NCBI GenBank assembly: GCA_040954595.2
Contig: CM082590.2
Location: forward strand, 7,626,001-7,690,000
Reading direction: 5' to 3'
DNA from: Balanoglossus misakiensis
Lineage: Eukaryota > Animalia > Hemichordata
DNA: 64,000 nt
Shown here: one piece after another, positions 15,579 through 43,843 of the stretch
How the letters are laid out: every line of letters begins with the position of its first letter
Numbering within the stretch: position 1 is the first letter of the stretch
Made by a program: the position numbers and the translations under genes
Notes under the pieces: model-generated
What the model was told of the DNA's origin: nothing
Databases searched by the model: none
Seen by the model: only the letters and a program-made list of their open reading frames with translations

Positions 15579-18500
15579 TCATTGCTTTTTCACTTTCTTC
15601 TTGGCCGGGTCGTCGAACTTGTAATCCTGCATGTAGTGGTATCTGTGGAAGCACGGGTCCACGCACATTCGGACCCGGCAGACCTTGCAGATATACGAGG
15701 TGCCCCGTCGCTGCAAGTGGACCTTGCATTCCCCGGACGATCCCGCCGAGACAGGGGCGCGCTCTTTCTCTCGGTCGAGTCTGACGTCCGGCGGGACCGG
15801 CGGAGACCACGGGCGCTTCGGGTGCTGGCAGAAGGAGCGGCCGCGGATGAGCTGGTCGGTGAGCTCCTCGCGGAAGGCCAGCGCGGTTTTCCCGGCGTGC
15901 GGATGCGCCTTCTTGTGGAGGGCGTGCGCGTTGACGACGGCCGCGTCCAGCAGGTACCAGAACACCTGGGAGAACCATTCCTTCTGCTTGATGTGGCGCT
16001 TGTACGGCTGCATGCGTCTGCTCGCCATCTGCTTGCTGTATACAGCTAAAGATTGACAGACCCTCACCAGGATTTGTCTGCACCGGGTCTGTCACATGCA
16101 TGCAGCATACCTGCCCTGTCAGGTATGCTGCATGTCTGACATGCAAGCCATGCACCAGACCTGTCCCGTCAGACCTGCACCAGACATTTCCCATCAGACC
16201 TGCAGCATGTCTATCCTGTCAGACCTGCAGCAGGCCTGTCCCGTCAGACATGCAGCAGGCATATCCCATCAGACCTGCACCAGGTCTGTCCCGTCAGACC
16301 TGCGGCAGACCTGTTAGAACAGACCTGCACCGGACCTGTTCTGTCAGACCTGCACCAGACCTGGTGCAGACCTGGTGAACTTTAGTTGTATACTCGGCGA
16401 TGACGTCCGGCTGATTGTACGTCTTCCCGCGCCGTCCACCGCCCTCCTTCACCGAACGCCGCACGGACTTCCAATTGGCGCAGACCGGCACGGTCGCCAG
16501 GACGGCCACGTTACCCGAGTCCTTCCACACGACGGCCGTCATGCCGCGTCTCTGCCACGACACCATCTGGCCGCGTTTGAGATTCCTCACCGCCGGCGAC
16601 GTCTCCTTCATGTCGACCGGTAGTCCCCGCTTGTTCATCTGCACAGCTCCGCAGCCCAAGATGCGTCGCTCTTCCAGTTCGCGGTACAACGACGGACTGG
16701 TGTAAGTACTGCTGCTGAACAGGTAGTATCCTTTATCGAAGAAGGGTTGGCAGAGCTGGAGAATGTTGTCGTTGATCGGGAACGTGCTGAACTTCCTTGC
16801 TTCTTTCCCGGTGTAAACTTTGACGTTCAGAAGATACCCAGACGTCGCCTCGGACAAAGTGAACACCTTGATCCCCCACTTGGTCTCGTTGCTTCGGTCG
16901 CACAACTTGAACGACACCGTCCCCTTGAACTTGATCATCGACTCCCCGACCAACAAGTTCCTCCCGGGGGTCACGTGTTTCTGGAAATTCCCTGTGATCA
17001 TGTCCATCACCGGACGGATCTGCCACAGCTTGTCGAAGCCGGGATCATTTCTATCGGTGACGGCCGTGTCATCATCAGCAAAGTGTAGATACGTCAGGAT
17101 GTCTCTATACAGCTGCCTGGGCATGGTGTGTCCGAACCCAGGCAAGTTAGTCAGCCAGAAACTCGACCAGTAATCCCTTATAGATCCCTTATTGGCCAGA
17201 CCCATGCCAATGGTCAATCCCAGAAACACCTCGAGGTGATCCACCGTTATCCCACCCGCCGGCCAGTCGGATTTCCGGGTGGATCCACGGACCCTTCTAC
17301 TACGTTCCTCGTTACGGTTAGTCTCATCCACGATATGTCTCATCACAGCCTCATTAAAGAAGAGTTTGAAAAGCTCTACCACGCTGTGATTAGCACACCC
17401 GGGATCGATTCCCACCTTTTCAGCGAACTCGAAGTCCTCTCTCGTTTCAACCACATGAGACCACTCACCATCACAATTGCCGTCATCCTCACCATCATCA
17501 TCGCCATCCTCCACGCTCCCGACGAGAAGGTCACTGCCAGAGTCGTCATCATCACTCTCAGCGTCCGGAATTTCATCTTCACTTTCACTGCCGGCTGAAT
17601 CATGTGACTCCTGTGTGGGAACCTCCTCTTCGTACTCTGTAAAGATTGCAGTTTTGAATGTATTTACGATGTGTTTTTTTTGGGGGTGAATTGTTAATTT
17701 TTACCTCACATGATCACATTTTGTGGGGTAATGTTATAGCAAATTCTATGTGTTATGGGTTTCACACAGGGACTATTAAGATGTTTCTGAAATGCCTCAC
17801 TGGCATACTGGCATAATTTTTAAAGTGTAAACAGTGGTCCTGAAACGTCTCAAATTTGGGGTGGCTTTGCTGGCCAGACCAGAGCTAGTGTAAAGTATTA
17901 ACACCTCTCTGCAACATAGTCTATGGGGCTGAGCATCAGGTCTATGCTTAAACTGTATGTGGACCCAAAGCGATTCAAAGGATTAAATTACAAATGGCCA
18001 ACAGTGCCTCTGAAACGTATATAATATTACCCAGTGTGAACTTGGTATGTATGTGTGTTTGTGTGTGTTAGAGAGCAACATACCATTTGCTGTTGTGCTA
18101 GGGCTGTCCTTATTGTCAGCATCCAATGTTGGTGTACACAGCAAAATTCCTGTGGGCTGAACACTGCCTTCGGTGTCAGTCCCCAATGCTGAACCACTCT
18201 CAAGTCTTGCATCACTGTTTGTTGGTTGGTTGAGAATGTCTTGCGCTCTATCGGAAGATCTTGAGATGTCGGTGAGATTTTCAGCCGAATCAATAGCCTG
18301 GGAGACGCGAGGACTGGGTTTGTGTTCGCGACTATCACTGTTGGTCTCTTGGATGGCCATGTAATGGTTTTCTAGCGCGGCTGGTTTGAAGTCTGTTTCA
18401 GCGATTTCTTGCTTGATGGTAATTTCACCGACGTTTGTCGACGGAGAGTCTGTTTGATCAAGAGAGGTTTCTCTGCAGTCGTCGCTTCGCTTCGAACGTT

Positions 18501-21016
18501 TCGCATCAGGGTCCTCACCTTCGCTGGACTGCACGCGCTTTGCGACGCTTCCTCGTTGCCTGGCTGCACCGCTGTCATCTCGGTCCACTTGCGCCACTTC
18601 AGTCGAACAGAACCTGTCCGCAAAATTGTGTTCGTTCGGAGCGAGGATACTCCCAGAAGTTGTCGCAGATTCATCTCTGCTGAGAGCACCACCATCTCTG
18701 CTGATATCCCTGTCATGGCTAGCTGTGCCCATTCTCTCCACTTTACCACTCAAACAGAGATAGTTCACAAATAGAATCAGGTCTGTAAGAGAGCAAAATA
18801 TATCACTCTGTTAGTAATAAATAACATTAATATCTTCCCAGGAATTAATTTCTGATGGTATTGTCTATTTTGCATAACAATGCCATTTTAATGACTATGT
18901 TTCTATTGTTTTCCTAAAATTAAATGAGTGATGTGTTAGAAGCAATTGTACTGTGTCAGCTCAAGACAAGTCAAAAGGTAGAGATATCCTGTAATCTGTG
19001 TTTTGATTCACCAATGTGCAATCACATGGGGTGTGCCAATTTGAGGTTTTTATACTTGATCAGTGTTTCATTCGGGATGGTATCAGCAGGGGGGATATGT
19101 CCCCCTTTGCCAGAATATTTGAGGGGGATTCCACTCTGGAAAGGGGGGACTGTAATATCATCAACATGTGAGTGACATCATTTTAAGGGGCAAAGATTAA
19201 AGGGACAAAGTCTCTCTCTCGCAGCCCTTTTTCCATAAATTATGTTTGATACAAGACACAGCTTATGTTATTCTACATGTGGATATATAGTGAATCAACG
19301 TTCGACCATCACGTTTGTAGGATATGAGAGTAAAAATCTCAACAAAATGAATAAAAGGTAAACACCAATTATTCATTATGGCGAGTTATTCACTCTTGTG
19401 TCTACAAGTGGGATGGAAGTTGTGTGTGGTTGAACGCTGATTCACTGTATATCCACATGTAGAATAACATAAACAGTGTCTTGTATCAAATATAATTTAT
19501 GGAAAAAAAGGGCAGCGTGAGAGAGACCTTGTCCCTCTAACCAGTCAACAGTTTTCGAACTGTTGCCTGACAGGAAACTGTTCGATAACTGTTGCCTGGA
19601 TATAAGTTTTAAAGTATACTCTTACCTGTCTGAGATAGAGCTCCCATTATAAATCGACCACACAGCTGTTTTGTGGACTGTTCAAACCACTGCCAATACT
19701 CTCTCTGTTTTCCTTCATCCCTCAGACAAGCCCATATTTTCATACACTCTGCAAGTTAAAACACATGTATGAGAGTAATGAATAAAGAGAAATCAAATTA
19801 CAAATCACCTATGTGCACTTATAATCCCTTTACCACTATGGTTTGTTCCAAATCTATTGTCTTTTATGGTAAAGTAGGACCATTATAAAATTATTTATTA
19901 AAGAAACAGGGGTGAACAGATTCAATAAGTCTTTCTTAATCTCTTTTCATGGCCAACGTTATTTTTCCCCTTGTTATACGCTTTCAATCAATTTTCTATG
20001 ATCACACAGGTAATTTCATGACGTTAAAGGTATACGGTCACCTATGGAAAATTAGCTATAGTTACCATGGCGAATTGAGATCTAGCCAATCACGGATTTT
20101 CAGTGGGTGGCACACGCGAAAAAAAGAGCGCCACCATATGTTCTTTAGAACGCTTAAATACGCCATTTCAGCCATCTATGCGCGTATGCAAATTGGAGGT
20201 GACCGTATACCTTTAATGAAGAGTGTCTGCATACACATAGGTGATCATCTGACACAAACTGAAATTTACGATTTTTCTGCAAACTTTACGGAGAAAACAC
20301 CACTAAACAATGACGTTTAATTTAAAAGAAGATAATGAATGGCTATAAGATGTACTGGTATCTCACTGAATTATGCCCAAATCTGCATATTTTTGGATTA
20401 AAATGCAAGGTGCATTATACTTTAGATGATCAACAATGATTGGGGTTGGCCCCTACTCCCCTTTAACCCTTTGACCCCCATTTCCCTCTATAGAGGTCCA
20501 ACTCTACCATTGAAAACAATGGAGTTGGACCAAACCATTGAGGTCATTGTTATATATAGTGCGCTTCATCTCCATGGCAACAAGAGCACCGCGTCCATAA
20601 CATATACACGTGCGAGTAGAAAGTCGCCTCCTTTCTGACGTGCACGCATCGCGCACGTGGCAATGGACAGAGCACAAATTCTAGGTAGGCACGCCTACAA
20701 ATAATTTGAGATGATTGAATCCTAGGTAAAAAGTCAGGAATTAGCCAGTGGGTGGGGGTAGAATTACCAATTACCATGGTGACGAGCGAGCTCAGAACCC
20801 AAAGACAGTGACACGACACCCAACTCATGTTAGCAAGGGTTCCTGTTTAATTTTTCTGCAGATTCATAGGCCAACCATTTCCCAAAAGAAACAACATGAC
20901 CTACAGTGACCTATAAGCCACGAGTTTTGAGGTAACCCCTCGTTTGAGGTCAAATAAGTACACCGAAAACAACAAAAACAATAATTACCGTCTATCTCAC
21001 AGACCACCCGTACCAT
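15579..21016 (-). CDS. Fusion gene A: unrecognised N-terminal domain + linker + domesticated piggyBac (PGBD-like) transposase; last exon interrupted by a MITE
   Basis: Exons 21016-20989, 19748-19626, 18782-18084, 17636-15579, all GT-AG phase 1 and in frame. PiggyBac motifs: FDKLWQIRPVMD, ESMIKFKG, KWGIKVF, VWKD, C-terminal Cys-rich domain. ~851 aa without the insertion, ~730 aa with it (stop at 16294). Confidence 0.85.
16041..16390. mobile_element. 350-bp TIR element with TA TSD inserted in the piggyBac-derived exon
   Basis: TA-TACAGCTAAAG ... CTTTAGTTGTA-TA; internal CAGACCTG subrepeats; removing it plus one TA restores GAG TAC AGC AAG CAG ATG in frame. Confidence 0.88.
19201..19536. mobile_element. 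Kolobok-type MITE, family K1 (intron of gene A)
   Basis: TTAA-AGGGACAAAGTCTCTCTCTCGC ... GAGAGACCTTGTCCCT-CTAA. Confidence 0.85.
20028..20212. mobile_element. Kolobok-type MITE, family K2, 185 bp
   Basis: TTAA-AGGTATACGGTCACCT ... AGGTGACCGTATACCT-TTAA; related fragments at ~14890, ~28892, ~29932 and ~49380-49430. Confidence 0.85.
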
Positions 21017-21461
21017 GTCTGCAACCCGGGAATAATCGTTGAAACAGTTCTTTTTGGGAAAATTGGAGAAACACACTTTTCAAATGTCCCACTCAAATCA
21101 GCCTTGTTCTTCTATTTAATCAGCGTGCATTCTGGGTTGAAAATAAAATCACAGAGGGCGCTTTAATTAAACTTTAAATCTGATTTATTTTCAGCAAATA
21201 TCCGTAAAATATTACAGAAAAGTAGTGAAAATGTTTATTATATGTGAAGAAAAATTCAACAGACGACAATTAGAAATTTTTCTTCAATTTTTCGTGGCTG
21301 GGAGAAATGTAACATGTTAGAAATGGACATGTTACAGCGACCTCTAGAGCTGACATATACATTTGACCCAAAGTCCAAACGAAAGCAAGCACACTGTGTA
21401 CATTCCAGGAATTGTTATTTTTTACCACTTGGCAAGAACTGGATTTCAAATCGTGAAACAG
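21017..21461. promoter_or_regulatory. Probable bidirectional promoter between gene A and the RING-ZNF gene
   Basis: Gene A ATG at 21016 (minus) and a strong plus-strand donor CAG|GTGAGT at 21461 are ~450 bp apart; AGAGGGCGCT at ~21153. Confidence 0.55.
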
Positions 21462-26350: not shown

Positions 26351-27288
26351 TTAGCCTTGATACTTTCGCAAGGCCTTGTTTATATCAACAACACAACCTT
26401 TCCATTTTAATTCCCTTTCATGGGGCGGGACGTAGACTGGGAAATACTTGAAGACAGCTTCTTTGATTGCTTCTACACGTCTTGGACTCAGAGGTTCTTT
26501 CTTAAGGCCCCTTCCTGTTCTCCCGGTAACAGTGCGATTGAATCTCTCTTCCGGTTTGAAGACTTTGTAGACTAGCTTCTTCGCGAAGTTCCCGATGGAT
26601 TTTGACTGGAGCAACGCTTCCTGTGCTGTAACTATTGGGATGGTGTACTTCCCTGGTTGTGATGTTGTTGCTGAGGTATGTGTGTAGTTGTCAGAGGTGT
26701 GCGTGTAGTTGTCAGGAGTGTGCGTGTAGTTGTCAGCTGTATGCGTGTAGTTGTCAGCTGTATGCGTGTAGTTGTCAGAGGTATGCGTGTAGTTGTCAGA
26801 GGTATGCGTGTAGTCGAATGTCTGCGAAGTTGCGCTGCTACATGGGAAAGGTATCGGTGCAGGCGAAGATGAAGACGGCGTTACAAGTGGCAGTCGTATA
26901 CCGGTAGACGTTTCGAGGGGCGCGGGCAAAGACGTTGGATTTCCCGGACGAGACACCACTGGTGGTACTGCAGCTGGTTGTGGAGGTAGCAGCATGGCCA
27001 ATCGCGAGACTGCAGACGCTCCTCCTGGACGATGCGACACACATTTCGCAGACGGCACCTGCTGCGTTTCCGGGCGTGGCTTGTTGTTCGAAGTCGGCGA
27101 CAAGCGACGATTCAACGACTTCAAGAAACCTTTCTCGCTCTTCCTCGATGGCTTGCGCAGATACTTCAGAACCGCGTCCACTTTACGTTCCACACGCGCT
27201 TGAGCAGATTCTATTTTATCTCTCCATCTTTCATCGGTTTCCTGTTCACCATATTCCTCTTCAGAACTTTCTGTAGGCTCCCGATTCC
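26351..27288 (-). CDS. Alternative last exon B-BEN4: short coiled coil + DNYTHTx repeats + BEN domain
   Basis: Phase-1 acceptor TTTTTCTGTACACAG|GG; BEN-like C-terminus NFAKKLVYKVFKPEERFNRTVTG...LSPRRVEAIKEAV...WKGCVVDINKALR. Confidence 0.8.
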
Positions 27289-27457
27289 CTGTGTACAGAA
27301 AAAAATCAGAACAGTACAGCAATAGACTTGTCAATATATATACATGTACATGTATGTGATTTCATAGTTAACAGGTACCTACAGCATGAATGTACAGAAC
27401 CAGTTCAACACAACACACCCGCACACACATGCACACACACACACACACACATTATTA

Positions 27458-28021: not shown

Positions 28022-28797
28022 TCATGCACACTCTATCGCAGGAAAAGGGCCATTCTTTTTCTCCCACGCAAGAATCTCATTTCTCAAGGCACTATTAACG
28101 CAATCACGGGCTTCTCTCCACGCCTTTTCGATCTCCGACGCCGGCGCCGGATACTCTCGGAACACGATCTGCCGGATGGTTTCAACCGTCGTCTGACACA
28201 AGGCGGCCTTCTTCCGGAAGGTGCTGCTCCCGAACAAATTCCGACCGAGTCTCTCCTTCTTGGTGAAGGCGAAGAATACCAATTCTTTCGCGAAATGTCC
28301 GCGGTGTCGCGATCTGGCCTTGATGATCTTGATCTGTTCGGGGTCGTTTAGTCCGCGAATGTTGCCCACAGCTGCTGTTGGGTTGGAGGGCGTTTCCATT
28401 CCCTGGCTCGAAGCAAACACAGGTGTTCCCACTCCCTGGCTTAGAGCGATCGCGTGCGGTGGCACCCCCTGGCTCGAAGCGATCACGTGCGGTGGCACCC
28501 CCGGGCTGGAAGCAATCGCGGATGGAATCCAAATCTTCTTTTCCGATTTTTCCATTTTCTTCACCGTTTTCGTCAAATCCGCCACCAACACGCCCAGCTT
28601 CACGACCATACTTTTGACACTGTCGCACCCCCTGCATTGAGATTCCTCACTCTCTGCTTCGTTCTCTCCGAGTAACATTCCCTGTAACTGCTCCAACACG
28701 GGGGTGCCCACCTGCAACGACGTCCAACATCTATCTTGTGCTTTCTCAGTTACTGAAGTGGGCGTTTCTGTTGTTTTGTCAGTTGCGGTGTGGACCC
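28022..28797 (-). CDS. Alternative last exon B-BEN3 (BEN domain; tandem copy 3)
   Basis: Phase-1 acceptor TTTCTTTGTCTTTCTGCAG|GG in frame; HFAKELVFFAFTKKERLGRNLFG...VETIRQIV...WREARDCVNSALR; a 4-bp insertion truncates the basic tail. Confidence 0.8.
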
Positions 28798-29040
28798 CTG
28801 CAGAAAGACAAAGAAATCCTAGTAGATATGTTCCCAGACTGCCGGCTGTACATACATATTCATCATCCTATTAATATTCATTACAATTTACTTAAAGGTA
28901 AATGGTCACCTATGCAACCTTAGCTACAGTAACCATGGTAAATTGACGTCTAATTAATATTCATTGACGTTTACATATTCATTGCCAAATGCAATTCTTC
29001 GGTCGACCAATTGACCTCTCTACATGAATGCATGCACTGT

Positions 29041-29837
29041 CTATTTCTTCTTCGTTTTTGGAGAGTCACCCTCTATCGCGGGAAATGGGCCATTCTTTTT
29101 CTCCCACTTAAGAATCTCCTGTCTCAGTGCACAGTTGACGCAATCGCGGGCTTCTCGCCACGCCTTTTCGATCTCCGACGCAGGGGCTGGGTACTCTCGG
29201 AACACGATCTGCCGGATGGTTTCAACCGTCGTCTGACACAAGGCGGCCTTCTTCCGGAACGTGCTGCTCCCGAACAAATTCCGTCCGAGTCTCTCCTTCT
29301 TGGTGAAGGCGAAAAATACCAGTTCTTTCGCGAAATGGCCGCGGTGTCGCGATCTGGCCTTGATGATCTTGATCTGTTCGGGGTCGTTCAGTCCGCGTAT
29401 GTTGCCCACGCCTGCTGTTTGGTTGGAGGGCGTTTCCATTCCCTGGCTCAGAGCAATCATGGGCGTTTCCACCCCCTGGCTCGAAGCAAACGCAGGTGTT
29501 CCCACTCCATGGCTTAAAGCGATTGCGTGCGGTGGCACCCCCGGGCTCGAAGCAATCGCGGAGGGAATCCAAATCTTCTTTTCCGATTTTTCCATTTTCT
29601 TCACAGTTTTCGTCAAATCCGCCACCAACACACCCAGCTTCACGACCATACTTTTGACACTGTCGCACCCCCTGCATTGAGATTCCTCACTCTCTGCTTC
29701 GTTCTCTCCGAGTAACATTCCCTGTAACTGCTCCAGCACGGGGGTGCCCACCTGCGATGACTTCGCACATCTATCTTGTGCTTTCTCAGTTACCGAAGTG
29801 GGCATTTCTGTTGTTTTGTCAGTTGCGGTGTGGACCC
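29041..29837 (-). CDS. Alternative last exon B-BEN2 (BEN domain; tandem copy 2)
   Basis: Same phase-1 acceptor, in frame with ORF 29041..29805; own stop after PKTKKK. Confidence 0.8.
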
Positions 29838-30080
29838 CTGCAGAAAGACAAAGAAATCCTAGTAGGTATGTTCCCAGACTGCCGGCTGTACATACATATT
29901 CATCATCCTATTAATATTCATTACAATTTACTTAAAGGCATACGGTCACCTATGCAAACATAGCAACAGTTACCATGGTAAATTGAGGTCTAATTAATAT
30001 TCATTGACGTTTACATATTCATTGCCAAATGCAATACTTCGGTCGACCAATTGACCTCTCTACATGAATGCATGCACTGT

Positions 30081-30976
30081 CTATTTCTTCTTCTTTTTTG
30101 GAGAGTCACACTCTATGGCGGGAAACGGGCCATTCTTTTTCTCCCACTTAAGAATCTCCTGTCTCAGTGCACAGTTGACGCAATCGCGAGCTTCTCGCCA
30201 CGCCTTTTCGATCTCCGACGCGGGGGCCGGGTACTCTCGGAACACGATCTGCCGGATGGTTTCAACAGTCGTCTGACACAAGGCGGCCTTCTTCCGGAAC
30301 GTGCTGCTCCCGAATAAATTCCGTCCGAGTCGCTCCTTCTTGGTGAAGGCGAAAAAGACCAATTCCTTCGCGAAATGGCCGCGGTGTCGCGATCTGGCCT
30401 TGATGATCTCGATCTGTTCGGGGTCGTTTAGTCCGCGTATGTTGCCCACGCTTGCTGTTTGGTTTGAGGGCGTTTCCAATCCCTGGCTCGAAGCATTCGT
30501 GGGTGTTCCCATTCCCTGGCTTAAAGCGATCGCGTGCGGTGGCACCCCCTGGCTCGAAGCAAACGCAGGTGTTGGCACCCCCTGGCTCGAAGCAAACGCA
30601 GGTGTTCCCACTCCCTGGCTTAAAGCGATCGCGTGCGGTGGCACCCCCTGGCTCGAAGCAAACGCAGGTGTTGGCACCCCCGGGTTCGAAGCAATCACAG
30701 ATGGAATCCAATTCCTTTTTCCCGATTTTTCCATTTTCTTCACCGTTTTCGTCAAATCCGCCACCAACACACCCAGCTTCACGACCATACTTTTGACGCT
30801 GTCGCACCCCCTGCATTGAGATTCCTCACTCTCTGCTTCATTCTCTGCGAGTAACATTCCCTGTAACTGCTCCAGCACGGGGGTGCCCACCTGCGATGAC
30901 GTCCCACATCTATCTTGTGCTTTCTCAGTTACTGAAGTGGGCGTTTCTGATGTTTTGTCAGTTGCGGTGTGGACCC
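30081..30976 (-). CDS. Alternative last exon B-BEN1 (BEN domain; tandem copy 1)
   Basis: Phase-1 acceptor TTTCTTTGTCTCTCTGCAG|GG in frame with ORF 30081..30890; own stop after PKKKKK. Confidence 0.82.
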
Positions 30977-31095: not shown

Positions 31096-33439
31096 CTGTG
31101 AAATATGTACTGTGCTGGTCGACTCCTGCTTGTCTGTTGCCATGGTCACCACTTGTGTTCATCACTTCAATGCGAGAATGTCGTCCGTCAGCAGAAGTGG
31201 ATGCCATCAACTTTTCAGCAGCAATCTGCAAGAAAATGTTAATAGATCAAGATTGGTGTTGAATATGCTATGTACATTCGGTTGCGCTCACAGTCAACAC
31301 TTTGACTGCACAAATTCAAGCATAGATACAGTAGTCATTCAGACACACATTTCTATTTATATACTTAATGGTATATTCATACAAACTACATACAAACATA
31401 TGGTGCATAACCACCCATACATAGATAGTCGCCATTTTCCTTGATCAACAAACACTTTTTCCAACACATGTGTGTTCTTTTATTTTGATACAAATTAAAT
31501 AAAACATCAAACATTTTTACAAAACATGAAAAAACCCCTCAAAAGCTGAAACTTGGAACTCGTTAACTAAGGTTTTTGGATGATTGGTCCTGATACAGTT
31601 TTTGGTGAATGTCAGAATGGAATTTGGGGCTCTGTAAAAACTGAGGAAAATGGTTGTTATATGCTGGCTAATCTTTTTAGCTGGTGTCCCCTTCGCCCGT
31701 TTCAAGGTGTTTGGTACAGTGCCTCGTTTTCGGCACCGATAGCGGATGTCGTCGTTTGAACGCGCGAAGCCATCCGCCAGAAGCCTTGAAATCGGATCGC
31801 CCTAGCAACCGTCTCGCCTGGAGCTGAAGTCCACGGCCGGTGCAGGGTTCCCCGTTCTCCCGGCGATCCTCCAGCCACTGAACCATGGAACGTTCCAGCG
31901 CCGGATCGGTAACCCTCCGCCCGGCACCGGGCAATCGCCGCGCCTCCATCCCACCAGCGCGCAGTTGACCTTTGACCTTGATCCACTGGCGGACTTGCGT
32001 CTCGCTGATCCCGAAGTGGCGTGCGGTTTTCCTGTTGTTGTTCCACTCTAACGCCTTGTCGACAACTTCTAACTTGAAAGCTATGTTGTAAGACGCACGG
32101 CGAGATGACTGAGATGGTTCATTTTGAAGTCAAGACAGAGAAGAGACAGTTTAGGAGAGCCCCTTGACTGGCCACTATAGAACAGGTTTGACTGTTTTTA
32201 ACTGTCACAGTACATCACAAGTAATCTGTTTTGACATACCTCCGCTTTGCTTGGTGTCTTGTCTCCTTTCTTTTTGGTCAGCTTTTTCAATGTGGTAGGG
32301 GTGACTGTCTTTTCCAGCTGAAACAAACATATCAAATGTATGTTAGTGTTTAGTGTAGCCATGTGATGGATATTCTGGCCAATAAAATAAAGCTAAGATG
32401 TATACAATCAATATGAACCATTATACTCAGCAAATTCTTTACTATCAATCTTGTGATCTGGCCATGTGTCCCACGACATTGTCATTTCCAAGTGACGGGC
32501 AACAATATTTCGGCATCCAGTCAAAGTTTTTCCGAGTATGTGTTTACTTTAGAACCGCCAGACACATAACATGTATTGGGCAAAGTTCCTCATCAGCCTC
32601 ATGGAGTTTCAGCTGCACAGTGTCCAACCATACCACGGAAAACAATGTAGAGTGAACCATGGTGGTGAAAGGGTTAAAATTCATTAAAATTTACCTGTGT
32701 AGTTTTGGCTTCCTCACTTGTATCACTGAGACCCTCTTCCTGGTCGAGTTGATTTTGTAGAGCTTCTAATGAAGCCTTGTTATCTGGGGGGGAAAAAACA
32801 ACAAAAAACTCTGTAAATAGTGCCAGTGACACTAGATATTATTCAAAAGTGGAGTATGGACAGTGTGCATCCTTAAAGGGACAAAGTCTCTCTCTCGCTG
32901 CCCCTTTTCCATTAATTATGTTTGATACAAGACACCGTTAATGTTATTCTACATGTGGATATATAGTGAATCAACATTCAACCACACACAACTTCCATCC
33001 CACTTGTAGACACGAGAGTGAAAAACTCGCCAAACTGAATCATCAGTCTCTACCATTTATTCATTTTGGGCGAGTTTTAACTCTCCATACAAGCGGGATG
33101 GATGTTGTGTGTGGTTGAACGTTCATTCACTACATATACACAATGTACATTAACACAAACTCTGTCGTGTATCAAACATAATTAATGACAAAAAAACAGT
33201 GAGAGAGAGACTTTGTCCCTTTAACCCTTTCATGGAAGATGAAAAAAAACTTTAGAATAATTGCCTACCTGAGGTGTTTATAACTGTGACGTATAACAAC
33301 TTGGACTTCTTCCATCCTGATTCCTTCCACTGAACAGACGCCCTTGCGCCTTTGGTGAGACGACTTTCTTCGAATACGTCCGAGGCAAGGACTGCAGTTT
33401 TCTTGTCAACTTCAAAGCGAATCAATGCATAGCCAGGAA
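31096..33439 (-). CDS. Internal exons feeding the BEN cassettes (BEND5-N-like beta domain + linker)
   Basis: Exons 33439-33269 (VPGYALIRFEVDKKTAVL...VQWK...VTVINTS), 32783-32695, 32317-32240 and 31225-31096; all GT-AG, phases 1/1/0/0/1 consistent and stop-free. Resemblance to the BEND5 N-terminus is from memory. Confidence 0.75.
31677..32108 (-). CDS. Alternative last exon: Brinker-type DBD + CENP-B/Tc5 HTH (pogo-derived, no DDE domain)
   Basis: RRASYNIAFKLEVV...TARHFGISETQVRQW then LERSMVQWL...FKASGGWLRAFKRRH; first AG after the pyrimidine tract (CTCAG|TCA) is phase 0, matching the donor at 32240; minus-strand AATAAA at 31479-31484. Confidence 0.72.
   Translation of the reverse strand, partial: SSRRASYNIAFKLEVVDKALEWNNNRKTARHFGISETQVRQWIKVKGQLRAGGMEARRLPGAGRRVTDPALERSMVQWLEDRRENGEPCTGRGLQLQARRLLGRSDFKASGGWLRAFKRRHPLSVPKTRHCTKHLETGEGDTS
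32877..33220. mobile_element. Kolobok-type MITE, family K1
   Basis: TTAA-AGGGACAAAGTCTCTCTCTC ... GAGAGAGAGACTTTGTCCCT-TTAA. Confidence 0.9.
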
Positions 33440-34493
33440 CTGAAAGTAAAGATGGAGAATTGCTTTGTGTAGCAGGCTATAGATGTATTTTTTTCTTACA
33501 CAAGAATGCATGCTGCTAGTCTATTATCCAGCTGTGATTTGCCTGCTTTGCTTCCAGAACTAACACCTAGCCTTAACCATGCTACTGGCCCAATAAATTA
33601 AAGCCTGACACCCCTTGCTGGGAATCGCCTCCTTTGAAGTTATTCAACGCTTCTGCTGTCGTGCTACGCTCTTGTAAATCGCAGTAGTCATTAGAATGAC
33701 AAGGGAGTGGTTTAAGAGAATCGGTTTGGCTGATTTGCCTGCAAACACCCAACATGTTTGTCTCGATCATACTCATGCATCTACAAATGCAATCTGAATA
33801 CTTTAGCAGTTTTCAAGTGAGAAGACAAAAAAACAGGGTAGACAGGACAAGAAGTGAATACACTGTATATAATGGTAACTTAGATTTATGTTATAATAAA
33901 CATTTTAAAAGTATTACTATTTTTCATTTTTGAAACAGTTGATAACACTAACAGGGAAATACGGAACTGACAAACATAACAATACTGGCTTTGCTATGAA
34001 ATATAAGTGAACACTTGAACTGGCAACAACGAAATTCAGTTAACTCAACATCTTAATTCTTAGGTGACTCAAGAAAAATGTCCACACTACATGCAAACCT
34101 GTATCGGGCTGCCTCAGGGAATGTTTAAGAAATCCTCAAATTGACTCAAAGCTTTTAAAAGTTATGTTTGTTAACCTTTACACTACCAAGTCAGTTAAAA
34201 CTGGTGTGATTCCCAGGGTGCCCAGAATCCTGGCTCCCAGGCCCGTAATAGGCTGCCAAGTGTGTGTTATTCGGTAGGGCCTATTCAAGACCCTCAGACC
34301 AATAGAGTACAGGGGGCTCAGACTGCCAATTGTGTCTAAGTACGTATGAGAGCCATGTCAAGACAGTCAAAATACGTTTTAGAAGAAAAAGTGGCAAATA
34401 CGTATTTTAAGGGACTTGACACTCTAAACAGGTAAGACACCCAGTAGCATTAGGGTTAAAGTAAAGGGCACACTGGTGATACTGTTCATGTTT

Positions 34494-37400
34494 TTATGTG
34501 CTGTCGGTTGCATGATGTAAGTCTGAGGTCGGGGGTACGTCTGCATTTTTCAGTTCTGCGACACGGGTCTTTTCAGCTGAACGGTAAGTTTTCTTTCCGC
34601 TGAGATTCGCGGCTTGCGCCATCGTTTTCATCAGACCCCTGAGGGAGTTGATGCCCAGTCTCTGATTCTTGTACCAGTTTCTCTGCCCGTACGCTTTGTA
34701 GTTTCTGGAGAGGTAGAGTGGGCTATCCGCAGTCTGCATAGCATCTGGACGTACTTCAACAAACCTCTTATAAGTCGCTACAGGACAGCGTTCCGGGTTC
34801 GACTTATCTTCGTAAATTCTAGGATTTTTTTTTCTAACGATTTCTCCTTTTTTCGTTTTTATCTCTATCTCGTTGTTGTATTCAATGTATTTAACGGTTT
34901 TGCCGTCGATGACTTCGTTGCCCTCGACGATATCGCGAAGCTTCAGGCTGTACTGCTCCTGGGGACCTTGTAATCCGAACTTGGTCGTGAAGAACCACCA
35001 CACAGCGTTCTGAAGTGCAGCCGGGCCCTGCAAACCCATTTGTCCTGTGTTATAAAGTTCGTCGACCTCGTCAGCGGTTAGAGGTTCACTCCTATTGGGC
35101 GTGTTCCCCTTCCCCATCGCTTTCAGTCGCCGTTTCTTAGCAACAAGGACACGCCTAGTTCCATCGAACAGAGCATCGGTTTTCACACGCCACTGATAAT
35201 TTTTATCGCGCAGTTCTCGATCGATCGAGTTAAAGAAACTGTGTAATGAATCAGGCTCGTATTCGGTTCCGTCTTGTCTTCTGGTTGTGTAGAAGTACTT
35301 GATTAACAGTTGGTCCAGTTCCTGGGGTGGGATCTGATGGATTTCGCGACGCTCGGACTGGGTCGAGTTCAGCCACGTTCGAAGCTGGTTCATGTCATTT
35401 CGTATTTTTCTGGCGGTGTTCTTCGCGATTTTGTGCTTAGAAGAATTTGGCCCATTTGTGTCGTGTTGACGATCAGCGTCCGACTGTAGGACCCAATGCT
35501 GTGATGTTTCATAACCTGGAAAGTAAAACTCATTGTCAAGAAGATCGGAGAGGAAGTGTTCGGCCATGTTGTACAATGCTGGAATAGGCTTATAGCAGGC
35601 GACAAACCATGGGCAAATCGTACCAGCAATCAGTTTTGTCATCTCCGATACGCGAAAACGCCATGCAGTCCCCCAGTATGTGGTCTTCCTATGTCTGGGC
35701 AAGTTTCCATCGGTTGCATTTGGGTTCAGGCGTTGCTGTATCTCTCCAAGTACACAGCATAGCGATTGTTCTTAGTGGCATGGGCGGGTCTTTTAACATC
35801 ACGGTAGGCATCATAAAAATGATGATCATGTTTCAGGCTAGCTTCGACAACTAGCTCACTCTCAATATTTATCTGGTATATTTCTTGGACCAGGGGGATT
35901 ATTCGGTGTAAACGATCTTGGGTTGAAACTGGCTGTGTCTCTATTATTCCAACCTACAGGGGAGGGAAGTGAATCTCCACGCAGCTCCGGTACATCCCCT
36001 GCCTTGCCCACGTCCCTCGGCCATGCCCCCTGCCACACCCACATACCCTACCACGCCCGCGGTCCCCTCTTCTGCCAGGCTGGCCTTCAGGGTTCAAAGG
36101 GTTAACGAAGCAAGCTTTTCAGAAGTAGTACTTTTTCAATCAGCTAGTTATTTTATATAAACAACTCTGCACGCGCACCACAATGAAAGTACCGGTAGTT
36201 CCGGTCACAGTGGAAATATATTCTGTATCTTCACCAGGTAAAAATACGGGGTTATTTCTTCACTGTGGATAATACTTCACTGTGGATTTTTTATCTTCAA
36301 TATAGTTGAAATCATAACAGCTCTAGGACCGTCACCCCCTGGATTTTACCCAGTAGGCACCTGAGCCAACCATATCCCTAACATTAGCCCTAACTGGTGC
36401 AGGTGGTAAAAACCCAGGGGGTAACCGCCTTGATACCATCACATCAGGACACAACTTACCTGGTTCCAAATCAGAGTCATCGATAACCACAGGAGATAGT
36501 GCAGAGACATCCTCATTTTGTAGAATTTCTGTTCCGGCGTCGGAATTGTCAACGTCTGACCCAACTTCCCGATCAAACGAGGGTGGATCCAGCAGTCTAG
36601 CTAGTGGTACCTCGTTAACAATGTCATGCTCTGTAAAAACAATAGGTTTAATTAAATGCATAAGGTCAGCTGAGGTTTCCATAGATGCTGTTAAATTTAT
36701 TTCCCAGAAAAACTTTCTAGTGTCTCCAATCCAGGCAGTACACACTTTGAAAATCAGTCTGAGCTTATTCTCAGGTTTTGTTCAAAGCAACCTTGCAATA
36801 TTTACTGTTGAAACTGAGAATAAAAATTGGGAGCCACAATTTTGAAAGAAAAAGCCAAAGTTGGCTCTAACCTGGAATTCAAAATTGCTATCCACACGAT
36901 TAAAGGGAATATGACCGTCTTATGCGCATGTGCCAAACCAGAGACTCTTGTTACAAAAACTGTCCAGTCAATGCCATAAGGCAGTGTGGTGTCCTAACAA
37001 TGGACAAAACTATGCATAAGCACATAAGACGATCGTCCCTCTTTAACATGGGGAAAGTAGTGATCTTTAAGAAACAAGATGGCCACTAGACTCATCCACA
37101 TCCTCTCTTAGACGATGTTTCACTGACTTACCATTTGCTGTTATGAAATTTGCAGTTTCCTCTTCATCTTGCGTTCCAGTTGGACGAACACTGCCCTCAG
37201 TGCCAGCCTGTACACTTGTTCCTTGGCCACCCTGGTGTCGACCTGACCGTCTAAGAAGGCGCTCTTTTGACCCACTGGCGACTGAGACATTGATATTCTG
37301 TGCGGTCTGGTCTCCATGATGTGGAACATTCTCTGCTACAACTCTGTGAATCGTTTCGTCCGTGACGCTCATGTCCAGATCGTCAATGTCTGAATCAGTT

Positions 37401-39034
37401 TCCTGTTTCACGGTTATCACACCGACGTTGTCACTTGGCGTTGAAACTGCTCGCGACTCACGGCGCCTTTTTGAATCACGATCGCCAGAGTCACTGCTAT
37501 TGGGATGCGTGCGTTTTAAGGCTCCTGATTTGTATGTCGTGCTGCCTGACGCGCAATTTGAGGTGAATCGGTCTTGGAAATTGTAGACGTTCGGGGCGTC
37601 CACACTGTGCTGTGGTGCCGCGTGTCTACGCTGCGTTGACCCGATGATAAGTCTTCCTTGCGTGGCAGTATTGGCTGGCGAGTTTTTGAATAAGTTTCTT
37701 TCAGTCAGAAGGTGATTGTTCGTGATCGCTCCAGAGATCGGGTTCACTTGCATAATCCCACATGGAAACGGCGCATCTGAAGTGATACTTTCAAAAGTCA
37801 TTGCACTTTTCACGGAGGCGTCTTCAACAGTTACGTTGTCGCCAAGTAGGTTACGCGGTCTGGTGATTTCTCTTTCGTCGTCACTGCCAATTTTTGGTGG
37901 CTTTGTTCGTATAATTTTCCCTCCCAGATAGAGGTAGTTGATGAACAGTACGAGATCTGTTAGAAATCACAAAAGAAGAACCTTATGTCATGAATAAACT
38001 TAGCCATACAAGAAAACATCATAATGACATTGACAAATACTGGTTTCATTAATTGATTCAGGTATACCGGAATTTGAATCAGTGTTCAGAAAAGACTTGG
38101 TGATCAGTCTAGACAGATTTCATTGTTCACTTTCCTATGACAGTTTCACCCTTTTCATTGTTCTCCTCAAAAAGATTTGGGAAAAACAATAGAAACTCAT
38201 TACCATAACAATTAATCGCATTGTATGTAAATTAGCTAATACAAAATTTTCCTTCTTACCTGTGTGAGTTAAGTTTCCCTTGATCAATCTCTGGTAGAGT
38301 TGTTGAGTTGAGTGTTGGAACCAGAGTCCAAACATACTTAATTTTTCTCCTTTTTGCAAAGTCTCCCATATTTTCTTACACTCTAATAAAATCACACAAA
38401 ATGAGAATATTTTAATGATTACAATCAGAACTTAAATAAAAGATAAACTTTTTTTTCAATTTCATAATGTAAAACTGACATGTACACATTGTATTGCATG
38501 CACTTGCACTGAAACTATTTATTTCACCCATTATCATATGCATACTTTATGCATTGGGGTACCACAGCGGTACATGCACGAAGCTCCATATACATGTACA
38601 TGTATAAGACAACGCACTTGGTTGCCTAGCAACACTCATATGTCCTCGTCTCTGCGAGCAGCCATTTTACTGGTCACGTGCTTGACATGTGACTTTACTG
38701 AACGACTAAATTTCTTTTACTAAAATGGCGGCCCCCATAGGCGCGGCGATACCTGACCATTTTCTGACAGCAAAGACCAAAGCCGCTTGAATCAAAAGTA
38801 TGCGTTTTTGTGTAAAGGACCAGATAGCTCTGCTTGGCAGGGGTGTGTGCCTTACTGGTACAGTGAGGGTGTAATGCCTCCACCGTAGTAGGACACAGGT
38901 TTAATATTTTTTTAACTTTTTTAAAAATAACGCGTGACACGAAGACACGTCCACTTACCGTCCAACTCGCAAAAGACCATAATCTCCTTGGTAACCACAC
39001 TTCCCTCAAGCGAGGTCGAGTTAGAAGTTGCCAT
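34494..39034 (-). CDS. Fusion gene B: unrecognised N-terminal domain + linker + Crypton-derived DUF3504 domain (ZMYM/QRICH1/KIAA1958-like), ~702 aa
   Basis: Exons 39034-38959 (Kozak GCCATGG), 38382-38260, 37956-37132 and 35578-34494, all phase 1 and in frame. DUF3504 motifs: RRQDGTEYEPDSL, GKGNTPNRSEPLT, PERCPV..Y, WYKNQRLGINSL..LMK. Confidence 0.82.
36460..36813 (-). pseudogene. Symmetric phase-1 cassette exon with an in-frame TGA (pseudo- or poison exon)
   Basis: Acceptor TTTTTATTCTCAG|, donor CAG|GTAAGT, 354 nt; open except for TGA at 36784-36782. Confidence 0.45.
36904..37042. mobile_element. Small degenerate TTAA-flanked MITE (Kolobok-like)
   Basis: TTAA-AGGGAATATGACCGTCTTATGCGC ... 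GCACATAAGACGATCGTCCCTCT-TTAA, imperfect TIRs. Confidence 0.55.
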
Positions 39035-39177
39035 GGCAGTATCCTAGGGTATCATCGACGCTGACACGTTGCTATGGCGTTGCTAACGCTCGTATTTCCG
39101 CACAAACCACGCTGCTCGACCAACAACAACATTGAAAGGTCACGCAGGCGAGAGTTCACAGTTCAGGGAGCAACTCA

Positions 39178-39240
39178 ACTGCGCATGCGGATTGCTAGAA
39201 GGAAAAAATCAGGGCGACCTGTAGAGGGCGACATGGCGGA
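39178..39240 (-). promoter_or_regulatory. Promoter motifs of gene B
   Basis: NRF1-like TGCGCATGCG at 39180 and AGAGGGCG ~41 bp away; the same arrangement occurs upstream of gene C. Confidence 0.55.
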
Positions 39241-40202
39241 CGAATTCACTTGTGATGTGGGGGTGTTGAGGACTTATTATCAACAATTCCTTTAATTCTT
39301 GACCAACCACAAAAATATTTGCCAACTAGACTTGATTTAAACTGTCTCTGAATGTCAATTCGAAGAATGAATTTGTTCTCAGATAAAAAATAAAACTGCA
39401 AACAGAGCCAACTTTAAATTGAAAATGTAGAGTCACGGATTAAAATTCTGATCAACAGGCATCAAAGTACCTGTAGGGCATTAAATACTGAAGAACCATG
39501 CATACCCAAAAATAAAAGTAATGCAACACACATATGAAAAGAATGCAATTTGTGTATTTTTATTTGAAAACCTCAATACCAACAAAGTTACGATGTACAA
39601 TGTTGTGAAGGCAACTTGCATTTAATTTTTAAGAAAATATATTTTTCTTCAGAACAGAAGTACAAGGAACTTGTGTAAAAAGTTGAAAAAATAAAGTTGA
39701 ACCTCATAACTATGAACACAATTTTAAAAACAAGGTAAATAGTTTGACTGGTTCTGATAGGAGACTTTTCTTCAAAAAGCTGAACTTTTAAACTATGAAC
39801 ACAATTTTCAATAGTCTCAATGATTCTGATTGGATGATGTAAATCAAAGATATAATTACATTGTTTTCAAAATGTCATTCATTTTAAATAACGCCCATTT
39901 ATAAATATAAAATTGACAATAAGGCACAGTTCTAAGCACAAATCAGTACTTCATTCGTATTCTTTTGTCACGAGAGTCATGAAACTTTGTAGCTTGGAAC
40001 TCAGAGCATACAGGTACATGTACTTTTGTATAAAATTTGAGGAAGACTGTAACAGAAAAATAAAACAAATTATTGAAAATACAATTGTCTTATCTGTTTC
40101 TTAACTTAAATTAAACTTGCATGAAAGTTGTTGATAGTCTTGTGATGAAATTTTGAATATTGCTTACTGCTCTACACAGACTAGTCATAAGCAGTGAAGC
40201 CT

Positions 40203-43200
40203 TCAAAATAATGGCTCTTCATCCTCATCTTTGTCGTTGGACAGGTCGGTCAGCATGTCCGCTAAGACCTGATCGTTGTGGATCAGTTCCGCTTCTCTGC
40301 CGTCTAAGGCGTTGCTGATACCGCACACCTTGAAAGATTTCGCCACCACGGCCGGTTTCGTCTTCATTTCGTTCCACGCGTCGACCACCCAGTTGAGGAT
40401 CGTCTGCTGACGATCGATGGCGGTGGCGAGGCGCCCTCTGTGGTCGTCGCTTTCGGGGGGATCCCGCGGCGATTCCCGGATGTACGACGTCACGGAACGG
40501 AGGAGGGTGGACTTGAACAGCTTGCGCGGGGCGACATCGAGGGGCTGCAGTTTGGCGTTGCAGCCAGCAGGTATCACCGCCGTGACTCCATTCGCCCGAC
40601 AGATTCTCGACTCGACAGCGTCCGTTGTATGGACGCGGAAGGAATCGAGAACCAGCATGGAGTAGCGACGCTCGGTGTACGGCACCCAGATTTCGTCCAC
40701 CCACTTTGCCATCAGGGCGTCGTCCATCGAGCCCGTCGGGTGACACGCAACGACAAAGCCCGGTGGGTGTTTCAGGTGGTACTCTCGTTTCCCTTTAAAG
40801 ATGATCATGGGCGGGAGAACATCGCCGTTCGCCGCGATCGCTAAGACCACCGTCAGGTGTTGTTTCTTGGTGCATGTCATCCGAACTTTCGCGTTCTTCG
40901 TACCACGCTTCTTCGCAATATTTGGGTCCAGATCGATGTAGAACGGCATCTCGTCCATGTTCCCGATGACGTCGAAATCGCCCGCGAGGCGCCGGGTTCG
41001 GACGTACGCGTGGAAGTCGGCGACGAGCGGCTGGAGGTCGCCCGGGAGATTTTGGGAAACGGGAGCGTTACCGCGGAGGACGCGGTCGTGGCGGGCCATG
41101 AACTTGTCGCACCAGCCCCGGGAGGCTCTGAAGTCGCCGTTCTCCGGCCTGACGACCTCCAGCGCGTGGTTGCAGATCGCGTCGATGGTGACGGGGATCT
41201 GGCGGTCGCGTCGCTGCAGAATCCACTGCAGGATGGACTCGGTGGTCTCGGCCGAATACGACACCTGACGGCCGCTCCCGACCAGTCGACCGCCTCTTGT
41301 GAACCGGTCCTTGCTGAAGTCGTACTTCTTCCACGTCTTCAGGGTGGACATCGGAATCTTGAATGACCTCGCCGTGGCGTTGAAACCTTCGACCTTCGCC
41401 AGGTCGAGAATTTCTTGGCGTTGTTTTAGGGTGTACGACAGGTAATGACCCCGTTTCTTGACTGCGGATGATGTCCGTGCCATGACTTCGTAAGAAGGTG
41501 GTGGTGGTTCGATGATTGAGGTAGGTTGTACAGAGGGGACTGGGGAATCGAGGACAGATGTTGACTGTGTGGGGACTGGTTGAACGACATCTTCAAGAGT
41601 TTGAGACCTGGAGTTGATATGTGGTTTCTTTCTCGGTCTCCCAACTGGACGTTTCGCTTTTCTCTCCAAAGGTTGAGGGGTGATAGACACTGATCTTGGT
41701 AATGCGGGAGTCTCGCTTGAATCTGCAAGAGTTTGAGAACTTGATTAGATACAAAATGTATGTGGTATCTTTCTAGGACTGACCCACTCCCAACTGGTGG
41801 GTTTTCTTTTCTCTTCATAGGTTAAAGGGACAAAGTCTCTCTCTCGCTGACCTTTTTCCATTAATTATGTTTGATACAAGACACTGTTCATGTTATTCTA
41901 CATGTGGATACATAGTGAATCAACATTCAACCACACACAACTTCCATCCCGCTTGTATGATATGAGAGTAAAAACTCGCCCAAAATGAATAAATGGTAGA
42001 GACCGATTATAAAATTGGTGATTTTTTTCTGCGACATCTGTGGGCTTACCTGCAGCGAGTGGAACGTTCTCTTCTACAACTGTGTGTGATGTGACAAAGT
42101 TATCGCCATAGACATTTGCAAGCAGATTTTCATCTGTATCCGATTCCTGACAAAGAGGTACATTCTCTGCCACTACTTCGTGCAACGTGGCACCACCCTC
42201 GTCAGTGACTTTTCCAAGAAGATGTTCGTCTATATCAGATTCCTGTTTCACAGTTATCACGCTGATGTTTTCCGCCTGGTTTGTCGAAACTGTTCGCCAA
42301 TCACAGCACCTTTTCATGTACATGTAATGAGCACCAGGTTCGTCATTGTTATTAGGACGCGTACGTTTTAAAGCATTTCCACTCTGCAAAGGCGCGTCAT
42401 CTAACACACCATTCGACGCGAATCGGTCTTGAATATTGTACACGTTTGAAGCGTTTCCACGGTGATGTGGTGCGGCGTACCTGTGCTGTGTCGAACCGAT
42501 CATAACCCTTTCCTGACATTCCGGCGTTTTGACAAAGTTTCTTTCCGTCGGAACATGATCGGTCGCGATTTCTCCAGACATTGGGTTCGCCTGCATAATT
42601 CCACAAGGGAAGGGATCGTCGGATGTGACGTTATCAAAGGTCATCGCACTCTCTGCGTGATCTTCTTCCTCAGTTACGCGGTCACCAAGCACGTGATGCG
42701 GTCTGGTGGTTTTTATCCTTTCGCCACGGCCGAACTTCAGTGACTCTCTGCGCGTAACCTTCCCACCGAGGTAGAGGTAGTTGATGAACAGCACAAGATC
42801 TGTCAGAAATCATGAGAATATATTGTTATGATATACAGTACCAGAATATGCTTGACAAATACTTGATTTAATTGCCGCTGCTAACTAGCCTAGGGGCACT
42901 CAAATTGACAATTGAGAAAACCACTGCCTCATTTATGTGATAACTATCTTAAATTTACTCTGATTTCTCACTGTGCATGTGATCAGCAGCAAACATTAAT
43001 CAACATCGATAACTAAACTGCAAAGCAAACTTTATTTTGGATATCAACCCAAAATTTGTCACACTTTTGAACTTTTATTTAGGGGAGTGGTTTCGGATCC
43101 AAGTGTAAAAATTTTGTTCGCGACAATTTTGACAGTCCCTATAAAGTGTAGACAGGTTTCAATGAAGCCTGTTTCTTTCAAATCTCTGCTTCATTTTTCT

Positions 43201-43843
43201 GTCTCTTACCTGTCTGGGTTAGTGTTTTCTTGACCAATCTCTGATACAGTTGTTGTGTCGACTGGAGAAACCAGAGTCCCAGCATGCTTTCCTCTCCCTG
43301 TAAAGTCTTCCATATTTCCTTACACTCTGACAAGCAAAATCCAAATAGTCAATCCTGTGTTAGTGGCCATCTCTATATAGTGGAATATTGTCTATAGTGG
43401 TACATGTATATACTTCATAACAGTACCTGCGCAATTTACATCTATAAAGGTCATATGTCCACAAAGAACAGGTAAAATAATGCCCCTTGAATGGATATTC
43501 TATAGGTAAATCTGTGTTTGGCCACCTCTATATAGTGGTCACTTTCTGTTTGAGAAGTTTACATGTGCATAAGTTGATTGACCTCATTTGACCTGCCTAT
43601 AAAGGTCACCCATATGCCACGGTAGGTTCGACACGATTGTGGATTTGGGGAGGGTCTGCATGACTTGGAAACGGCCAGGGGTCTAAGTGACCTGACCCTC
43701 TTTCGAGCACACAAAACATCACATAGCGAGTTCAACCAAACAGCAATAAATACACTATGTTTACCTTCGAACTCGCAAAGCACGATGACTTGTTTGGGAG
43801 AAGAGCTTTTTCTCGTCTGCGAGGATGCGCAGAAAGTTGTCAT
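40203..43843 (-). CDS. Fusion gene C: unrecognised N-terminal domain + linker + AT-hook + pogo (POGK/POGZ-like, DD35D) transposase, ~821 aa
   Basis: Exons 43843-43765, 43326-43210, 42799-42050 and 41722-40203, all phase 1 and in frame. KRPVGRPRKK AT-hook, two HTHs (FRASRGWCDKFMARH), triad IGNMDE / LVLDSF / LQPLD with 35 residues between D2 and D3. Confidence 0.88.
41826..42010. mobile_element. Left half of Kolobok-type MITE K1 (intron of gene C)
   Basis: TTAA-AGGGACAAAGTCTCTCTCTCGCTG..., truncated at ~42010. Confidence 0.8.

Follow-up and report, generated by a model that had tools for sequence, protein, structure and literature searches.

A cluster of predicted host-transposase fusion genes with a common front end and transposon-derived last exons in the acorn worm Balanoglossus misakiensis

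Three front ends and their transposase-type last exons

A 64,000-nucleotide stretch of the genome of the acorn worm Balanoglossus misakiensis (contig CM082590.2, positions 7,626,001 to 7,690,000; the window) carries three paralogous genes, here called A, B and C, in which a common front end of three coding exons is predicted to splice onto a pogo, a Crypton and a piggyBac last exon. The gene models were rebuilt from the window sequence, all on the minus strand, with splices predicted from that sequence (Table 1). An earlier note on this DNA had placed three front ends here, with start codons at 43843, 39034 and 21016, and all its coordinates are borne out by the rebuilt models. So is its claim of phase-1 introns joined in frame to the tails: all nine introns across the three genes have GT-AG ends and interrupt the frame in phase 1, and the exons, once joined, read without an internal stop, giving 821 amino acids (aa) in A, 702 aa in B and 730 aa up to the first stop in C. 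The tandem arrangement that it described holds for paralogy and strand but not for adjacency, as about 13.5 kb separates gene C from the end of the Crypton exon in B.

The tails had been read as pogo DD35D, Crypton/DUF3504 and piggyBac, and Pfam agrees on each. The last exon of gene A matches DDE_1 (E 1.6e-21) and HTH_Tnp_Tc5, that of B DUF3504 (E 1.8e-23) and that of C DDE_Tnp_1_7 (E 1.9e-53). The D-D spacing in the pogo exon is 35, its triad is intact, and the pairing of HTH_Tnp_Tc5 with DDE_1 is that of DD35D (Passer-like) pogo elements. Transposase open reading frames (ORFs) of 505 and 360 codons are intact. A transposase-derived domain in frame with host sequence on separate exons, by which Cosby et al. 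recognize a host-transposase fusion, is present at the level of sequence.

Acceptors were ranked post hoc by a small matrix, trained on 14 other hand-picked acceptors of the window and scored on 3568 minus-strand AGs. The pogo acceptor falls at the 97th percentile and the piggyBac acceptor at the 96th; the Crypton acceptor at 35578 reaches the 86th, and an alternative at 35515, also in phase 1, the 96th. The Crypton junction first proposed, 37132 to 35578, is indeed in frame and in phase 1, but the proposal had overlooked both the stronger acceptor and an additional exon of gene B (36630-36460), whose inclusion lengthens the product to 759 aa. Counting all tails in the window, the phase-1 acceptor reaches the 96th percentile or better in seven of eight last exons. 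The chance of a comparable acceptor so near an ORF start, a rough and post hoc figure, is 0.02, 0.06 and 0.21 for the three transposase exons.

The three tails look domesticated in different ways. The closest of 80 pogo matches are free-looking transposases at 36-45% identity. Aligned with six free relatives, the pogo exon spans the whole protein minus about eight first residues, start methionine included; the acceptor coincides with this missing start, and the first methionine in the exon is residue 80. The pogo ORF has, on this alignment, lost its own start codon. It keeps 47 of 56 near-invariant columns, against a median fraction of 0.96 in 35 relatives tested among the 80 matches, and the nine changed positions include a Trp and an Asn-Pro beside the active site. 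In the Crypton exon the catalytic motifs appear lost or altered and the ORF stops before the usual tyrosine, judged against the usual motifs of these enzymes. In gene C the positions of the first two catalytic aspartates of piggyBat are G and S. In GC content at third codon positions the pogo and piggyBac cores (0.78 and 0.74) resemble the neighbouring host zinc-finger core (0.75). The earlier note had named free elements flanked by terminal inverted repeats (TIRs) as evidence that would speak against fusion; among the best 25 pairs per region, no convincing TIRs bracket the pogo, Crypton or piggyBac exons. With no convincing TIR, the pogo start gone, the Crypton motifs apparently altered, and D to G and D to S changes in piggyBac, these exons are, as read here, not active elements.

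The piggyBac exon contains a 350-bp element that causes a frameshift, with a stop at 16294, and leaves a C-terminal zinc finger (15579-16040) out of frame in the assembly. Because the element breaks the ORF and cuts off this finger, gene C is probably truncated in this haplotype. Within the element are many sites resembling CAG/GT donors and, at 16045, a weak acceptor in phase 1, so that it might be partly spliced out in frame; a splice from 16349 to 16045 is one weak candidate.

Other repeats lie close to the tails. A palindromic miniature inverted-repeat transposable element (MITE) of about 350 bp with TTAA ends, presumably Kolobok-like, occurs in several copies (15181-15528, 19197-19524, 32873-33226 and 41820-42029); the last lies in intron 3 of gene A, and the first has 24-bp perfect terminal arms. 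Decayed repeat-like sequence with TTAA-CCC ends flanks the Crypton exon (35580-36105 and 34176-34455); a piggyBac origin of the relic at 35580-36101, suspected from its TTAA-CCC end, is unsupported.

The front ends are 53% identical between A and B over 281 aa, and A and C are 50% identical over a 66-aa amino-terminal domain, the N-domain. Between A and B the ratio of nonsynonymous to synonymous substitution rates (dN/dS) is 0.18 over the 66 codons of the N-domain (95% bootstrap interval 0.07-0.36) and 0.37 over 189 further front-end codons, dS is about 0.9, and introns 1 and 2 can be aligned only as patches of at most 25 nt. The duplication that produced A and B is old, and both are under purifying selection that is most pronounced on the N-domain; given the dS, the two are not haplotypes of one gene. 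A psi-K-x-E motif, the SUMO-acceptor consensus, is present in all five front ends compared (A, B, C and those of Ptychodera flava, introduced below), where shuffles yield one in 8-14% and A, B and C are not independent. Upstream of the three start codons the ratio of observed to expected CpG (CpG o/e) is 0.79-0.98. Each start codon has the motif CGCCCTCT no more than about 200 bp before it (39223-39239, 44043-44050 and 21153-21160), although the motif is also present elsewhere in the window, and A and B have in common an upstream block of 58 bp at 76% identity. These two features suggest that the promoter was duplicated along with the front end.

Homologues in Ptychodera flava and further last exons

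A profile of the three exon-2 peptides, run against 1.84 billion proteins, gave four matches, three of which are RefSeq proteins of Ptychodera flava; the fourth, 17 positions in an unrelated repeat protein, was dropped. Identity between P. flava and window sequences is 29-56%. XP_070546446.1 (X1, 1211 aa) and XP_070546447.1 (X2, 765 aa) are identical over their first 399 aa and then run into unrelated tails, and the common part closes with an A-N junction of the kind found in genes B and C; XP_070545729.1 is a paralogue, on a contig of equal length. The annotated P. flava proteins are continuous across the positions of window introns 1 and 2. As the two isoforms change tails after 399 common aa, last exons appear to be used alternatively in this family. 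The X2 tail, a coiled coil followed by a helical BEN-like domain, has no Pfam match; it aligns over nearly the full profile of the window's four BEN-like exons, described below, and one of 2000 shuffles scored higher. The X1 tail matches nothing in Pfam, PHROGs or PDB, and its motifs resemble those of a Crypton-type tyrosine recombinase.

In further searches for relatives, profile A2 confirmed two of 7993 candidates, only the P. flava homologues P0105 and P0106; gene A exon 3, compared with longer proteins, confirmed none of 1284 candidates; ESM Atlas gave no usable match for exon 2 or for residues 14-200 of P0105; and in a metagenome scan none of 152 pattern matches was confirmed. In unrooted trees of five N-domains, the three copies from the window group separately from those of the two P. 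flava genes, at support values of 84/86 and 91/92 that lie below the star threshold; this is suggestive of separate duplications.

Between B's Crypton exon and an opposite-strand zinc-finger gene, the window holds a four-exon cassette and five more in-frame last exons, four of them BEN-like and one a pogo-type helix-turn-helix (HTH). All four BEN acceptors are in phase 1, at the 98.5-99.4th percentile. None of the three tandem exons matched Pfam BEN; the three nonetheless match the BEN exon at 26351-27288 at E about 2e-9. Among the three, dN/dS is about 0.2. They form a recent triplication in units of about 1.04 kb, with 80-92% aa identity and differences in a 33-bp repeat.

Which gene do these exons serve? 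The first cassette exon has no methionine, the kilobase upstream of the cassette is CpG-poor (CpG o/e 0.36), and the one ATG-bearing phase-1 donor before it, at 33953, is weak (90th percentile). On these grounds, the most economical reading has gene B feeding the cassette and the BEN exons: the cassette is likely spliced from gene B, which has six candidate tails behind it and would have up to six alternative ends, compared with two in the P. flava gene. The strongest rival holds that A, B and C are three separate genes with one captured transposase each, and that the cassette, HTH and BEN exons form a fourth, independent BEN gene with an undetected first exon. A and C do have one tail each in the window, the donor at 33953 could serve such a gene, and the first cassette exon resembles the N-terminal module of ordinary invertebrate BEN proteins. 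Set against these points are the CpG-poor upstream sequence, the missing methionine and a P. flava homologue that already has a BEN-like alternative tail, and separate genes appear somewhat unlikely.

Several neighbours complete the locus. A gene pointing away from C on the plus strand has a small exon (22481-22612) with a weak RING-type match (Pfam E 4e-4) and a long exon (22890-25244) with many C2H2 fingers and a likely phase-1 acceptor; it is possibly another shuffled phase-1 gene, with a promoter region common with C. Two minus-strand exons of an upstream gene (49817-51368) encode repeated Thr/Ala-rich, cysteine-bearing modules, probably extracellular, and several unrelated tandem or satellite arrays occupy the downstream side of the cluster (1-1200, 5500-8500, 9000-10900 and 12340-13050).

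Table 1. Predicted exons and associated features of the cluster (window coordinates)
Feature	Position	Strand	Description
Gene A coding exon 1	43765..43843	-	ATG 43843; phase-1 donor
Gene A exon 2	43210..43326	-	phase 1-1; core of the three-helix N-domain common to A, B and C
Gene A exon 3	42050..42799	-	third helix, second conserved block, conserved psi-K-x-E, disordered linker; phase-1 donor
Gene A last exon	40203..41722	-	near-complete pogo DD35D transposase: AT-hook-like motif, HTH, DDE_1
Gene B coding exon 1	38959..39034	-	ATG 39034
Gene B exon 2	38260..38382	-	N-domain core
Gene B exon 3	37132..37956	-	phase-1 donor
Gene B additional exon	36460..36630	-	acidic; phase 1-1; B frame preserved
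Gene B Crypton/DUF3504 last exon	34494..35578	-	predicted acceptor 35515 (stronger) or 35578
Four-exon cassette	31096..33439	-	33439-33269, 32783-32695, 32317-32240, 31225-31096; enters and leaves in phase 1
Pogo-type double HTH last exon	31677..32108	-	BrkDBD and HTH_Tnp_Tc5; in frame after cassette exon 3
Three tandem BEN-like last exons	28022..30976	-	phase-1 acceptors 30976, 29837, 28797
BEN-domain last exon	26351..27288	-	Pfam BEN E 9e-8; phase-1 acceptor
Gene C coding exon 1	20989..21016	-	ATG 21016
Gene C exon 2	19626..19748	-	N-domain core
Gene C exon 3	18084..18782	-	phase-1 donor
Gene C last exon	15579..17636	-	piggyBac transposase and C-terminal zinc finger; interrupted
350-bp element in piggyBac exon	16041..16390		inverted ends, internal 25-bp tandem array, TA on both sides

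The N-domain and its possible kinship with SETDB2

The host domain had been called unnamed, and this description stands: no Pfam family matches the N-domain or the full P. flava homologues, and no KRAB, SCAN or BTB domain is found among them. AlphaFold places three helices in P0105, at residues 23-35, 39-58 and 64-76, with a predicted local distance difference test score (pLDDT) of about 75 there; modelled alone, the N-domain is all-helical with three helices, at a mean pLDDT of 63. It is predicted to be a three-helix bundle of about 60 aa. A BTB identity, raised by a motif in helix 3, is ruled out by the lack of a Pfam BTB match and by the all-helical, three-helix model.

One candidate relative recurs. 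Among 177,635 PDB sequences the sole match of the N-domain profile is the amino-terminal domain of SETDB2 (5TFP), over 46 ungapped columns and at an E of 0.78, which is not significant. Foldseek ranked 5TFP first with both models, at a probability of 0.30 with one and of 0.72-0.84, against at most 0.13 for others, with the second, and with E about 1. A wide structural search with the full model again placed 5TFP first (Z 5.7, root-mean-square deviation (rmsd) 3.8, 56 residues aligned), with several others within 1 Z. The domain-only model compares with 5TFP at Z 3.9 and rmsd 4.1 over 59 residues, and in the wide search with that model 5TFP is absent among the 50 matches listed. Three other sequence queries did not retrieve the SETDB2 domain. 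In human SETDB2 the corresponding segment is probably a single exon of about 126 nt with a phase-1 intron at either end, against 117-123 nt for exon 2 in the window. Both are domains of about 59 aa with three helices, predicted in the case of the N-domain, and that of SETDB2 stands at the N-terminus of a chromatin protein; they differ in that MBD and SET domains follow in SETDB2 and none follow the acorn worm N-domain, and the scores are below significance. Each of these tests is weak, and homology of the N-domain to the SETDB2 amino-terminal domain is put forward tentatively, with confidence a little short of even.

What might such a domain do? The N-terminal helices of SETDB1 bind ATF7IP, according to the accessible text of PMC12167477, in which SETDB2 is not mentioned. 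In the literature searched, including passages of PMC13108219 and PMC6049066, nothing was found on the function of the SETDB2 amino-terminal domain.

Origin, function and relation to known systems

Together, these observations point to a common, constrained three-exon front end that quite probably splices at phase-1 junctions onto pogo, Crypton and piggyBac tails, and likely onto BEN and pogo-HTH tails as well, to give modular nuclear proteins. A number of findings weigh against it. The HTH acceptor is weak (65th percentile), and gene C is interrupted by the 350-bp element. The pogo triad is intact, and of the 35 free relatives two score lower on the conserved positions and one ties. The Crypton ORF has an in-frame methionine four codons after 35578 and could start by itself, and its GC content at third codon positions (0.56) is lower than that of the pogo core (0.78), the piggyBac core (0.74) or the neighbouring zinc-finger core (0.75). 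The P. flava tails are not orthologous to those of the window: BLASTP found no match between the Crypton exon and X1, and tblastn located neither tail there. One P. flava homologue (P0107, 391 aa) is annotated without a recognisable tail.

Might the front ends be short stand-alone genes, and the transposase ORFs free domesticated genes or young insertions whose in-frame acceptors are coincidental? The tailless P0107, the methionine near the Crypton ORF start and the small, post hoc acceptor scoring would fit such an account. It would have to explain, however, why exon 3 closes with a canonical phase-1 donor in all three genes, why the pogo ORF has no start of its own and would lose its AT-hook-like motif, and why X1 and X2 run on past the equivalent point; with the chance values given above for each of the three acceptors and no convincing TIRs found, it is very unlikely. 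That the fusions are spliced but sequester active transposases or keep a nuclease role (pogo), instead of regulating transcription as tethered proteins, is an equally poor prospect: in its favour, the catalytic folds are complete and pogo retains its triad, but the piggyBac catalytic residues are gone, nothing catalytic is present in the BEN and HTH-only tails, and the nine changed pogo positions reach close to the active site.

For the modular front end with phase-1 tails, a plausible route can be drawn. Transposons would insert behind exon 3, supply or acquire a phase-1 acceptor and be read as alternative last exons; the captured elements would lose mobility and be retained as DNA- or chromatin-binding tails. 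The constant N-domain, probably protein-binding, would likely bind a cofactor while the tails are interchangeable, and the products would therefore be site-specific regulators. The fusion proteins would regulate transcription at the sites bound by their tails, with repression the likelier mode at about even confidence, and, as the earlier note suggested, they might act on cognate transposons. Duplication of the front end and promoter into an existing row of last exons could give the A/B layout without independent captures; for some partners there may have been only one capture, as an alternative exon, with the copies of the front end dividing them up later. The idea from which this work started, an invertebrate counterpart of KRAB-like capture, keeps its core, a host domain under purifying selection with predicted joins to domesticated-looking exons; its picture of one gene per transposase is incomplete, given the two P. 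flava isoforms and the row of acceptors that follows gene B. A more ambitious version, unlikely as a joint claim, is that a small N-terminus of a SETDB2-type histone H3 lysine 9 methyltransferase became detached into a constant adaptor, plugged by alternative last exons and duplication into transposable element (TE) modules and BEN domains, and brings heterochromatin machinery to transposon-derived sites. The TE modules in that version would come from at least three superfamilies: pogo twice, piggyBac, Crypton and a second recombinase type in P. flava.

KRAB in tetrapods is the main documented case of a single effector domain that has captured transposases repeatedly. If the present reading is true, a second, unrelated domain in an invertebrate deuterostome makes the route from transposon to transcription factor a general one, and joins two patterns so far seen separately, capture of the KRAB type and alternative tails of the mod(mdg4) type. 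With a front end that has persisted and tails that are not the same in the two acorn worm genomes, such a locus would offer a small, self-contained system in which to follow the gain and loss of DNA-binding specificities. It also provides a testable starting point for the unnamed domain and, possibly, for the N-terminus of SETDB2, which has received little study. No paper on this gene family was found in the literature searched; most subscription papers and supplement tables lie outside that scope and could contain one.

In tetrapods, host-transposase fusions such as KRABINER, POGK, POGZ and CSB-PGBD3 (10.1101/2020.05.07.082677, PMC7386202, PMC5381638) join host exons to an acceptor before a transposase ORF, as predicted for the acorn worm genes, the acceptor lying just ahead of the ORF in 8 of 9 cases (10.1101/2020.05.07.082677), and reuse one host domain across several superfamilies. 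POGK and POGZ derive from DD35D (Passer) pogo elements, the class of the gene A tail (PMC7386202). The acorn worm genes differ in being invertebrate, clustered and predicted from sequence, in a host domain that is not KRAB, SCAN, BTB or any Pfam family, and in their Crypton recombinase and BEN tails. Crypton-derived DUF3504 genes include KIAA1958, KCTD1, ZMYM/WOC and QRICH1, and KIAA1958 has two alternative DUF3504 exons behind a common front (PMC3212892). Like that group, gene B has a single-exon DUF3504 domain with catalytic residues apparently lost; unlike it, gene B has a different front end and sits among non-Crypton alternatives. The capture of TE domains in invertebrates is already known (PMC12062965, PMC10027918), though the word "hemichordate" is absent from the accessible main texts of these two papers. 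The F-box-mariner HTH genes of Caenorhabditis (PMC12062965) are similar in that an invertebrate host domain present in multiple copies is coupled to a TE domain, but reflect one capture followed by expansion, against several unrelated TE partners in the acorn worm.

Closest in architecture is Drosophila mod(mdg4), with four common exons and 31 variants, 27 of them with FLYWCH, some of which repress a retrotransposon (10.1101/2022.01.16.476534). In this mod(mdg4)/lola type of locus, constant N-terminal exons are followed by variant last exons with DNA- or chromatin-binding domains, as predicted for the acorn worm genes. The acorn worm genes differ in having no BTB domain, in tails from unrelated TE classes, often whole enzymes, in place of copies of one zinc finger, and in variants that are predicted; as all tails lie on the same strand, trans-splicing is not needed, unlike in mod(mdg4). 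The cluster is, on these predictions, a host-transposase fusion family that joins capture of the KRAB type with a mod(mdg4)-like architecture, and is neither a KRAB nor a BTB gene.

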